Of a stretch of DNA of 39,747 nt, positions 21,714-24,109 are shown one piece after another. The notes below the pieces were generated by a model, which did not search any database, was not told the DNA's origin, and saw nothing but the letters and a program-made list of their open reading frames with translations. This stretch comes from Escherichia phage Vec13: sequence record NC_048023.1; one strand, 5' to 3'. The translations under genes were made by a program, and so were the position numbers. Position 1 is the first letter of the stretch. Every line of letters begins with the position of its first letter.

Positions 21714-21736
21714 ACTAAACTATCACTATAGGGAGA
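21714..21736 (+). promoter_or_regulatory. Phage RNAP promoter (phi10-like, full consensus incl. GGGAGA)
   Basis: ctaaACTATCACTATAGGGAGAcc; best match to T7-family class III promoter downstream GGGAGA; directly upstream of major capsid gene. Confidence 0.9.
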
Positions 21737-21838
21737 CCAAGAGACAGACTCAAGGTTTCCCTATTACTTCAGTCCATACGGATTGGGCGTACAGTAAGTA
21801 ATATACTTTATCTTTCAATTGAATAGGAGAATTATCAT

Positions 21839-22888
21839 ATGGCAAACGTTCCGGGTCAGAAAGTTGGTACAGACCAAGGTAAGGGTAAGTCCTCTACCGA
21901 CGCACTAGCACTGTTCCTTAAGGTCTTCGCTGGTGAAGTCCTGACCGCCTTTACCCGCCGCTCTGTGACATCCGACAAGCATATCGTCCGCACCATTCAG
22001 AACGGCAAGTCTGCTCAGTTCCCGGTAATGGGCCGCACCTCTGGTGTGTATCTGGCCCCAGGTGAGCGCCTGAGCGATAAGCGTAAGGGTATCAAACATA
22101 CCGAGAAGGTCATCACCATTGATGGTCTGCTGACCGCTGACGTGATGATTTTCGACATCGAAGACGCCATGAACCACTACGATGTGGCTGGCGAGTATTC
22201 CAACCAGCTGGGTGAGGCTTTGGCTATCGCCGCTGATGGTGCGGTACTGGCTGAGATGGCGATTCTGTGCAACCTACCTGCTGCATCCGACGAGAACATC
22301 GCTGGTCTTGGCAAGGCGTCTGTGCTTGAAGTAGGCACTAAAGCAGACCTGAACACTCCAGCCAAGCTGGGCGAAGCAATCATCGGTCAACTGACCATCG
22401 CTCGTGCGAAGCTGACTTCCAACTATGTACCTGCTGGGGACCGATACTTCTACACCACGCCGGACAACTACTCTGCGATTCTGGCTGCTCTGATGCCTAA
22501 CGCTGCTAACTACGCTGCGCTGATTGACCCTGAGACGGGCAACATCCGTAACGTAATGGGCTTCGTTGTGGTTGAAGTTCCGCACCTGACTCAGGGTGGC
22601 GCTGGCGAGACTCGTGGTGACGATGGTATCTCCATTGCTTCTGGTCAGAAACATGGATTCCCTGCTACCTCTAGCTCTACCGTTAAGGTTGCGCTGGACA
22701 ACGTGGTGGGCCTGTTCTCTCACCGTTCTGCTGTGGGTACTGTTAAGCTGCGCGACTTGGCGCTGGAACGTGACCGCGACGTTGATGCTCAGGGCGACCT
22801 GATTGTCGGTAAGTACGCGATGGGTCACGGCGGTCTGCGCCCAGAAGCAGCAGGCGCACTGGTTTTCACAGCAGCGTCAGCGGGCTAA
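21839..22888 (+). CDS. Major capsid protein (T7 gp10A homolog)
   Basis: 349 aa; LALFLKVFAGEVLTAF, HTEKVITIDGLLTADV, YAALIDPETGNIRNVMGF, AVGTVKLRDLALER, KYAMGHGGLRPEAAGA match T7 gp10A. Confidence 0.98.
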   Translation: MANVPGQKVGTDQGKGKSSTDALALFLKVFAGEVLTAFTRRSVTSDKHIVRTIQNGKSAQFPVMGRTSGVYLAPGERLSDKRKGIKHTEKVITIDGLLTADVMIFDIEDAMNHYDVAGEYSNQLGEALAIAADGAVLAEMAILCNLPAASDENIAGLGKASVLEVGTKADLNTPAKLGEAIIGQLTIARAKLTSNYVPAGDRYFYTTPDNYSAILAALMPNAANYAALIDPETGNIRNVMGFVVVEVPHLTQGGAGETRGDDGISIASGQKHGFPATSSSTVKVALDNVVGLFSHRSAVGTVKLRDLALERDRDVDAQGDLIVGKYAMGHGGLRPEAAGALVFTAASAG

Positions 22889-23151
22889 CGACCTTTAAGG
22901 CCCTCTCTACAGAGGGTCCTACCTTAGAGACATATAGTTCTACGGTGGGGACCAGCTTGAAGGTTGACTTCCCTGAGCTTTCAGATGTGACCGATTGGTC
23001 GCTGCTCGATGTGACTACGCCTGAGGGTGTTAGTTACTCCCGTAGAACCAACAGTCTCTACTTCAAGGCCACCTCTGGCGTGGAAGGTCTGGTGATTGTT
23101 GGGTATGACGGTTCGCCTGTGCGTTCCTTCAACGTATCTTTCACAAACTAA
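21839..23151 (+). CDS. Minor capsid protein (gp10B-like) via programmed -1 ribosomal frameshift at 22861..22867
   Basis: Slippery heptamer G GTT TTC near end of 10A, same as the T7 gene 10 site as I recall it; -1 frame open from 22813 to stop at 23151, adding about 95 aa. Confidence 0.55.
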
Positions 23152-23154
23152 TTG

Positions 23155-23195
23155 AAACCCCTTGGGTGCCTTCGGGTGCTTGAGGGGTTTTTTGC
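23155..23195 (+). terminator. Tphi-like terminator for phage RNAP
   Basis: aaCCCCTTGGGTGCCttcgGGTGCTTGAGGGGtttttt: GC-rich hairpin with G-U pairs and ttcg loop followed by T6; same position and architecture as T7 Tphi. Confidence 0.8.
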
Positions 23196-23315
23196 TTAAT
23201 GATGAGGAGGGACTATGTTCCTTATTTACACATGGTTAGTACTATTCGTCTTATTCTGGTCGTACCTGCTGCCAAGCTCACCGTCCAGCCCATATGACCG
23301 TTAAGGAGTAAACCT

Positions 23316-23882
23316 ATGCCTCAATACATTCCACTGAATGCTAACGATGACTTAGACGCCATCAACGATATGTTAGCTGCTATCGGTGAACCAGCAGTCC
23401 TACAGCTTGACGAAGGTAACGCTGACGTCTCGAACGCTCAACGTATCCTGCATCGTGTTAATCGTCAGGTCCAAGCTAAAGGCTGGAACTTTAACATCAA
23501 CGAAGCTGCTGTCCTGACGCCTGATGTCCAAGACAACAGGATTCGATTCCTGCAGTCTTACCTTCGGGTCATGACTGCTGGTGCTACCAGTTACTACAGC
23601 AACATGGGGGGCTATCTCTATGACCTGTCCACTCAGTCCACGACCTTCACTGGACCAATTACAGTCGAACTGGTGGAGATGAAACCGTTCGCTGAGATGC
23701 CTGTAGTATTCCGTGACTACATCGTTACCAAGGCTAGCCGTGAGTTCAACGCTAAGTTCTTCGGTAGCCCAGAGTCTGAACTGTACCTTCGTGAGCAGGA
23801 AGCAGAACTCTACCAGCAGGTGATGGAGTACGAGATGGACACTGGTCGCTACAACATGATGTCCGACATCGGGAGGGACTAA
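23316..23882 (+). CDS. Tail tubular protein A (T7 gp11 homolog)
   Basis: 188 aa; IGEPAV, RILHRVNRQVQAKGWNFNI, VTKASREFNAKFFG, MEYEMDTGRYNM match T7 gp11. Confidence 0.95.
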   Translation: MPQYIPLNANDDLDAINDMLAAIGEPAVLQLDEGNADVSNAQRILHRVNRQVQAKGWNFNINEAAVLTPDVQDNRIRFLQSYLRVMTAGATSYYSNMGGYLYDLSTQSTTFTGPITVELVEMKPFAEMPVVFRDYIVTKASREFNAKFFGSPESELYLREQEAELYQQVMEYEMDTGRYNMMSDIGRD

Positions 23883-24109
23883 TGGCTAGTCACAACCTGA
23901 AGATTCACCGCCAGCACTTTGGTCCGGTACAACTAGGTCTAAAGACAGCAGAGCTGAGACTTAACGACCGGGACTTTAAGGTTGGCGACTGGCTTATCCT
24001 GAATGAGTGGGACAACGGGTATACTGGACAACAGGTAGCACGTAAGGTTGTCCACATTGATGACGTTGGTGACATCGCTGAGGGATACGTCCTAATGAGT
24101 ATGATTTAA
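23882..24109 (+). CDS. Small protein (75 aa) inserted between tail tubular genes; possible DUF3850/ASCH-like fold
   Basis: SD gggaggg; motif LRLNDRDFKVGDWLIL resembles DUF3850 family proteins; no T7 counterpart between genes 11 and 12. Confidence 0.55.
   Translation: MASHNLKIHRQHFGPVQLGLKTAELRLNDRDFKVGDWLILNEWDNGYTGQQVARKVVHIDDVGDIAEGYVLMSMI

Follow-up and report, generated by a model that had tools for sequence, protein, structure and literature searches.

Roughly a tenth of the capsid subunits of phage T7 are the minor protein 10B, which is dispensable. Both 10A and 10B of T7 are encoded by gene 10, with 10B arising by a programmed −1 ribosomal frameshift (Condron, Atkins and Gesteland 1991, as cited in the review PMC5009743). 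In that review, the X_XX part of the T7 slippery site (G_GU) is classed as an intermediate form, and a CCCC motif in the terminator, >200 nt downstream, is reported as necessary for frameshifting to reach its full level, with the effect left unexplained (PMC5009743). In T3 and phiYeO3-12, 10B acquires an Ig-like (Big_2) domain when ribosomes shift to the −1 frame (Fraser et al. 2006, as cited in PMC5009743). For 10B of Kluyvera phage Kvp1, a virion band of 43.6 kDa was analyzed by mass spectrometry, which established a −1 shift at TTTTCA (PMC2579914). In K1F, the type species of Kayfunavirus, g10b::gfp fusions placed behind the same shift site as that described here resulted in fluorescent virions (PMC6277420), and the 10B position was later engineered to display Ig-like adhesins (PMC13370021).

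Escherichia phage Vec13 belongs to the genus Kayfunavirus (K1F-like phages related to T7). The window analyzed here is its whole sequence of 39,747 nt (NC_048023.1), and the features of the gene 10 region are listed in Table 1. The gene 10A product matched the Pfam family Gp10A-like (E = 3.5e-105) and shared 95% identity with PDB 9vvq and about 70% with T7 10A. At the nucleotide level, the capsid region was 90–93% identical to many Kayfunavirus phages of Escherichia, Cronobacter, Shigella, and Enterobacter. Gene 10 of Vec13 very probably yields two capsid proteins, 10A and a minor 10B, by a T7-type programmed −1 ribosomal frameshift. We favor this reading because the heptamer and its register match those of T7, the choice of codons at the site goes hand in hand with an extension, substitutions in the −1 frame have a coding pattern, the first strand of the confidently predicted folded domain precedes the sole candidate internal start, and the corresponding site of K1F has been used for display. 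A −1 shift giving a C-terminally extended capsid protein had already been proposed in the first-pass annotation, and the comparative, structural, and literature evidence presented below supports this proposal.

Table 1. Features of the gene 10 region of Vec13 (positions in the window)
Feature	Position	Strand	Details and basis
Gene 10A, major capsid protein, 0 frame	21839..22888	+	349 aa, 36.4 kDa; ORF list
Overlap zone, 0 and −1 frames both open	22813..22888	+	76 nt; frame scan
Slippery heptamer G_GTT_TTC, proposed −1 shift site	22861..22867	+	In register with the 0 frame
Gene 10B, −1 frame segment	22867..23151	+	94 codons and TAA stop; translation
Linker, extension residues 1–20 (HSSVSGLTTFKALSTEGPTL), predicted disordered	22867..22926	+	AlphaFold2 pLDDT about 50
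Predicted Ig-like beta-sandwich, extension residues 21–94, seven strands	22927..23148	+	AlphaFold2 pLDDT about 90
68-codon ORF with GTG start	22945..23151	+	−1 frame; judged to be internal to 10B rather than a gene
Tphi-like intrinsic terminator for phage RNA polymerase	23154..23194	+	17-pair hairpin (23154–23191) with CCCC/GGGG base, then T-run; folds and terminator scan

The GTT triplet of the heptamer (22862–22864) is codon 342 of the capsid gene (Val342), and the adjoining TTC is codon 343 (Phe343). The first-pass annotation had placed G GTT TTC eight codons before the capsid stop, which holds when the count starts from GTT, as the TAA stop (22886–22888) is codon 350. The heptamer had also been equated there with the shift site of T7 gene 10, and GGTTTTC is indeed present in T7 (NC_001604) at the position homologous to that in Vec13. 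In T7 as in Vec13, G_GUU_UUC is followed by A, covers the homologous Val-Phe codons, and lies 3–6 codons before the 10A stop. The frame scan returned the same limits for the −1 frame as the earlier annotation, with this frame open exactly from 22813 to 23151. Beyond the capsid stop, the +1 frame stayed open for only 3 codons and the 0 frame for 12. To reach the extension, the shift must fall within the overlap of the two open frames, where no other X_XXY_YYZ-like motif was found when the sequence was read directly. The heptamer departs from the canonical X_XXY_YYZ form, with good re-pairing expected in the A site (UUC to UUU) and poor re-pairing in the P site (GUU to GGU). The T7 site shows the same deviation in the P site.

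When both strands were scanned, GGTTTTC was present in a single copy in the window. Shuffled sequence contained a mean of 3.58 copies, and the mere presence of GGTTTTC somewhere in the genome is therefore uninformative. An in-register copy within the 25-codon overlap has an expectation of about 1e-3, as calculated from the shuffle result, and the probability of the 88 stop-free codons past the capsid stop is about (61/64)^88 = 0.015 in a uniform-codon approximation. Compared with these chance calculations, the comparative evidence is the stronger argument for the frameshift.

This evidence came from 24 GenBank and IMG/VR loci that surround relatives of the extension, and from 80 further T7-like capsid loci of IMG/VR. 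For the contingency test, 87 distinct 3′ ends of T7-like loci were used, and a −1 ORF of at least 40 codons was counted as a long extension. Such an extension was present in 58/60 loci with GTT_TTC, compared to 13/27 loci with other codons at this position (Fisher p = 3e-7, not corrected for phylogeny or shared ancestry). Several of the 13 long −1 ORFs without GTT_TTC were accompanied by an A_AAG motif, as in T3, and the other 14 of these 27 loci had no long extension. Where Val-Phe was encoded by GTC, GTG, or GTA followed by TTC, the −1 ORF mostly comprised just 11–36 codons. Therefore, the choice of slippery codons follows the presence of the extension and not the encoded amino acids. The base after the heptamer (A at 22868 in the window) was invariant in the relatives and was A in 60/60 distinct GTT_TTC loci; a few relatives carried C or A as the first base of the heptamer. 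Among 12 distinct close relatives, the heptamer was invariant, while third codon positions varied on both flanks.

In the same 12 relatives, 34, 13, and 7 variable columns of the extension fell on −1 frame positions 3, 1, and 2, respectively (calculated chi-square 22.3, p about 1e-5). As judged from these substitutions, the distribution is the signature of a translated frame and points to purifying selection on the extension. A tblastn search with the extension peptide identified relatives in 453 phage records, with protein identities of 40–50% in Przondovirus (K11, KP32), Pektosvirus, and Dickeya phages. At every examined locus, the extension was in the −1 frame and continuous with the capsid gene; its length was 88–103 codons, and the linkers differed in length. 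The shift site was kept across genera whose capsid proteins share only 70–77% identity. When applied to T7 and T3, our reconstruction procedure gave 10B proteins of 398 aa and 433 aa, which are the lengths of the curated joined CDSs.

A frame change might take place elsewhere in the overlap, either by P-site slippage on G_GGC at the TAA stop (22882–22888) or by polymerase slippage on the run of four T. Stop codons can stimulate P-site slippage, and a slip at GGC_TAA would also give a product of 437 aa (junction ...ALVFTAASAG-LTTFK). However, the codon before the stop is free to vary (GGC, GGT, GTC, CCG, GAG, GCC, GCT, and others), whereas GGTTTTCA is invariant. Runs known for transcriptional slippage are far longer than four T. 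A frame change elsewhere is also at odds with Kvp1, where mass spectrometry located the junction at TTTTCA (PMC2579914), in agreement with the heptamer and the invariant A of Vec13-type loci. Kvp1 is a different phage with a different extension, and the comparison with it covers its reported shift site. Taken together, we regard a frame change outside the heptamer as extremely improbable.

The −1 ORF and the heptamer might also be an evolutionary leftover, or mark a low-level accidental slip, with no functional 10B incorporated into the capsid. The dispensability of T7 10B fits this explanation, as do the loci L039, L060, and L012/L035, which retain the heptamer with a truncated or deleted extension. 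In L012/L035, the deletion takes out half of the domain together with the terminator. These natural variants indicate that the extension is dispensable and that the signal could outlast its function for a while. Against a leftover stand the substitution pattern of purifying selection, the conservation of the protein across genera, the confidently predicted fold, and the intact ORF in the window, which together make this explanation highly unlikely for Vec13.

A −1 shift at the heptamer would exchange the last 6 residues of 10A for 94 others. The predicted 10B therefore has 343 + 94 = 437 aa and a mass of 45.9 kDa, close to the about 95 added residues and about 46 kDa estimated at first pass. 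The predicted junction is ...PEAAGALVF/HSSVSGLTTFK. Tryptic peptides of the predicted 10B include the junction peptide (YAMGHGGLR)PEAAGALVFHSSVSGLTTFK and peptides of the Ig-like domain, e.g., VDFPELSDVTDWSLLDVTTPEGVSYSR. In the literature searched, no proteomic or ribosome-profiling data were found for Vec13 or for any phage with this cassette.

Part of the extension had been listed at first pass as a 68-codon ORF, which indeed lies in the −1 frame. This ORF could be a separate gene with its own initiation at GTG, in which case the product would be a free protein of 7.4 kDa that may serve as a decoration protein, and no frameshift would be required. In the GenBank records of relatives that were examined, the corresponding ORF is annotated as a CDS of its own (a "hypothetical protein" or "minor capsid protein" of 68–87 aa) and never as a joined CDS, and the late mRNA is very abundant, so that even weak initiation might yield some product. 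However, the duplex with the anti-Shine-Dalgarno sequence at the GTG amounted to −2.9 kcal/mol, compared to −7.3 to −12.8 kcal/mol for the neighboring genes. The start itself (Val27 of the extension) was not conserved, as the aligned residue in relatives was Ala, Leu, Ile, or a gap, and the starts called in relatives were inconsistent, with products of 44–87 aa. Moreover, beta-strand A of the predicted domain (extension residues 21–26) and the conserved linker are both encoded upstream of the GTG. The ORF was always in the −1 frame and continuous with the capsid gene, and its presence co-varied with the slippery codons. Independent initiation is therefore a very improbable origin of the protein, and the T7-type frameshift remains the preferred reading.

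The extension was modeled with AlphaFold2 from an input alignment of 27 sequences. Its folded part is confidently predicted to be an Ig-like beta-sandwich, like the phage Ig-like domains that are appended by frameshifting (the class of Fraser et al. 2006). No solved structure with the extension was found, as PDB entries 9vvq, 7y23, and 2xvr end at the 10A core. The extension falls into PHROG phrog_7473 (E = 1.7e-36; function unknown), and the domain of the window had no Pfam match at E ≤ 1. The best Foldseek match among viral models was a 76-aa "minor capsid protein" of Pectobacterium phage PP81, followed by weak matches to Ig/BIG2 proteins. When 1.84 billion representatives were searched exhaustively with the family profile, only 15 proteins were returned, comprising short ORFs of the same kind and repeats within large multi-Ig proteins. 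These few matches indicate that the domain represents a small, divergent Ig-like family. In the literature searched on Kayfunavirus and Przondovirus, no description of a 10B with this domain was found. The little-described part of the system is the attached Ig-like domain, whereas the frameshift mechanism is well known.

In its overall organization, the predicted Vec13 10B resembles T3 10B, with a linker and one Ig-like domain (94 residues in Vec13 vs 89 in T3) on a minority of subunits. The two differ in the shift site, which is C_CCA_AAG in T3 and G_GUU_UUC in Vec13, and in the domain, which in T3 is recognized by Pfam as Big_2 (E = 4e-10). No direct sequence kinship between the Vec13 domain and T3 Big_2 was detected by Pfam, and hhalign of the window's domain against an alignment of T3-type extensions gave a probability of 0.1%. 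An indirect link is nevertheless seen, as one of the multi-Ig repeats matched by the profile of the Vec13 domain family is a Big_2-annotated repeat in protein P0052 (E = 1.9e-12).

The terminator hairpin starts 2 nt past the −1 stop (23149–23151), in accordance with the Tphi-like terminator that had been noted directly after the extension at first pass. Its sequence is near-identical to Tphi of T7 and of K1F. In all of the representatives folded (20/20), the hairpin began 2–15 nt downstream of the −1 stop. In T7, the −1 ORF likewise ends just ahead of Tphi, and this terminator also contains CCCC; the distance between shift site and terminator is about 290 nt in Vec13 and about 170 nt in T7. 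The CCCC motif of the Vec13 hairpin (23158–23161, about 290 nt from the shift site) is a candidate distal 3′ stimulator, by analogy with the role reported for T7. No conserved local stimulatory hairpin or pseudoknot was found 3′ of the heptamer, where the downstream 93 nt of the window folded with z = −1.45, and 20 representatives of different cassettes had no common hairpin at a fixed spacing after the heptamer. A larger region of 356 nt folded with z = −4.17 because of the terminator hairpin. A Shine-Dalgarno-like upstream stimulator was rejected, as the only match was the GG of a conserved glycine codon, with a spacing unlike that in dnaX.

K1F, which belongs to the same genus, allows a further comparison. 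Its capsid protein is 95% identical to that of Vec13, its shift-site context (GCACTGGTTTTCA) and terminator are identical, and its −1 ORF stops at the same spot, immediately before TTGAAACCCC. However, the K1F tail is short (48 residues) and of the T7 type (…ELTPQQKAARTRAAN…), whereas Vec13 carries an unrelated Ig-like cassette between the same flanks. An Ig-like module on 10B is engineered in K1F and natural in Vec13. The extension of T7 also differs from that of Vec13, as its 56 residues are Ala/Glu-rich and contain no folded Ig domain. The difference between the Vec13 cassette and those of T7 and K1F is absent from the first-pass annotation.

Across the loci, the common flanks were the shift site with the start of the linker (SG[VL]xTF) upstream and Tphi downstream. 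The motif S-G-[VL]-x-T-F, which is encoded across and after the 0-frame stop, recurred in Ig-like, K1F-type, and Big_2-type cassettes. At least three unrelated inserts were found between these flanks: the Ala/Glu-rich tail of 42–56 residues (T7, K1F, and many others), the Ig-like domain of the window, and a Big_2 domain. The Big_2 domain was combined with CCCAAAG in T3-like phages and with GGTTTTC in a metagenomic phage locus (L050). Judging by these sequences, the extension apparently behaves as an exchangeable cassette between fixed flanks. One tentative interpretation, which we rate as somewhat less probable than its converse, is that this is a recombination cassette by which phages swap surface modules that tune the adhesion of the capsid to mucus or host-surface glycans, while the frameshift would control their dose.

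According to the T7-type mechanism, most ribosomes would remain in the 0 frame of Vec13 gene 10 until the TAA at 22886 and produce the 349-aa 10A. A minority would slip one base back while the P site is occupied by tRNA-Val on GUU and the A site by tRNA-Phe on UUC. These tRNAs would re-pair on G_GU and U_UU, and reading would continue in the −1 frame (CAC AGC AGC...) up to 23151. The resulting 10B would consist of capsid residues 1–343 joined via a flexible linker (about 20 residues) to an Ig-like domain of 74 residues. It would co-assemble with 10A, so that a fraction of the subunits would expose the Ig-like domain outside the head. By analogy with T7, Kvp1, and K1F, the slip would take place on the ribosome and at this heptamer, and the extension would face outward. 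Outward display is suggested by the fluorescence of the K1F g10b::gfp virions (PMC6277420) and by the adhesin display in the same phage (PMC13370021). The Ig-like domain may mediate weak adhesion to glycans of mucus or the host surface, a role that the general behavior of phage Ig-like domains makes conceivable, though not quite probable.

What is known here is the gene 10 frameshift of T7 and K1F, which is now predicted for another Kayfunavirus. The modest novelty is an uncharacterized Ig-like module that is widely and wrongly listed as an ORF standing on its own. The Vec13 case does not alter how frameshifting as such is understood. In the annotation, gene 10B should be given as a joined CDS (21839..22867, 22867..23151), and the 68-aa "hypothetical protein" of the 453 records of related phages very likely forms the C-terminal portion of a minor capsid protein. 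For engineering, these data indicate that a folded domain (about 75 residues) can naturally be accommodated at the display position of K1F and T7. Many phages that are candidates for therapy (of Klebsiella, E. coli, Salmonella, and Enterobacter) would bear a sub-stoichiometric Ig-like domain on the capsid surface, and such a domain could influence mucus retention, immunogenicity, and pharmacokinetics. If the interpretation as a recombination cassette is true, hundreds of records of "stand-alone hypothetical proteins" would mask a widespread natural capsid-display system, which would span phages of Klebsiella, E. coli, Salmonella, and Pectobacterium.

In each of the 60 distinct loci that carry the slippery heptamer GGTTTTC near the 3′ end of the capsid gene, the base directly 3′ of the heptamer is A (GGTTTTCA; position 22868 in the window). 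The 0-frame codon that begins with this A differs among the loci, being ACA, AGC, AAC, AAA, or AAG. Because the A is invariant while the codon varies, this pattern suggests either that the 3′ neighbor base belongs to the shift signal, or that the −1 frame codon CAN (His/Gln) is constrained.

Shortened forms of the −1 frame extension occur naturally. Locus L012, on a contig shared with L035, is a deletion variant (~1660–1780), where the sequence breaks off halfway through the Ig-like domain (…TTPE) and resumes within the terminator T-run. The deletion takes out the hairpin together with the C-terminal half of the Ig-like domain, and it fuses the −1 frame to a small hydrophobic ORF, a diverged copy of the 29-codon ORF in the window. 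The latter is preceded by a strong Shine-Dalgarno sequence (GAGGAGGG, −12.8 kcal/mol) and encodes a very hydrophobic product, for which no match was found in Pfam. K1F and SFPH2 (L004) differ from the window in lacking this ORF, with gene 11 directly following the terminator. In the capsid 3′ ends of L039 and L060 (both from IMG/VR), GGTTTTC is kept and the T7-type extension stops after 15–19 codons, with the remaining extension peptide encoded downstream, in another frame or past a stop. This shortening is explained by an indel, by an error in sequencing, or by recent loss.

Two further features of the window lie on either side of this region. The promoter-like sequence occupies the same position as phi10 of T7. 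The product of the 75-aa ORF matched DUF3850 (E = 2.4e-19) and ASCH in Pfam. A hypothetical protein is encoded at the equivalent place in Salmonella phage ST20, whereas in K1F gene 11 adjoins gene 12 without such an insert.

Features of the window around the capsid gene and its extension
Feature	Coordinates	Strand	Location	Basis
Phage-RNA-polymerase promoter-like sequence (…aaactatcactatagggagacc…)	~21716–21740	+	~100 nt upstream of gene 10	Sequence
29-codon ORF MFLIYTWLVLFVLFWSYLLPSSPSSPYDR	23215–23304	+	Downstream of the Tphi-like terminator, upstream of gene 11	
75-aa ORF	23882–24109	+	Downstream of gene 11, upstream of gene 12 (both tail tubular genes)	

Among solved structures, none spans any 10B extension from this phage group. 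The PDB 9vvq chain is titled "Minor capsid protein", yet it has 347 aa with a K1F 10A-type end, and is the product of major-capsid length.

The type of extension is not linked to the shift site, since in L050 (IMG/VR) the heptamer GGTTTTC is of the T7 type, but the extension that goes with it is a T3-like Big_2 domain (Pfam, E = 1.2e-8). The T7-like capsid genes of L056, L065, L069, L073, L074, L078, and L085 (all IMG/VR) are without the T-run heptamer. Their −1 ORFs of 87–180 codons terminate at the terminator, and ...GAA_AAG_G or ...ACA_AAG_G is found immediately ahead of the stop. These sequences suggest additional shift sites of the A_AAG type.
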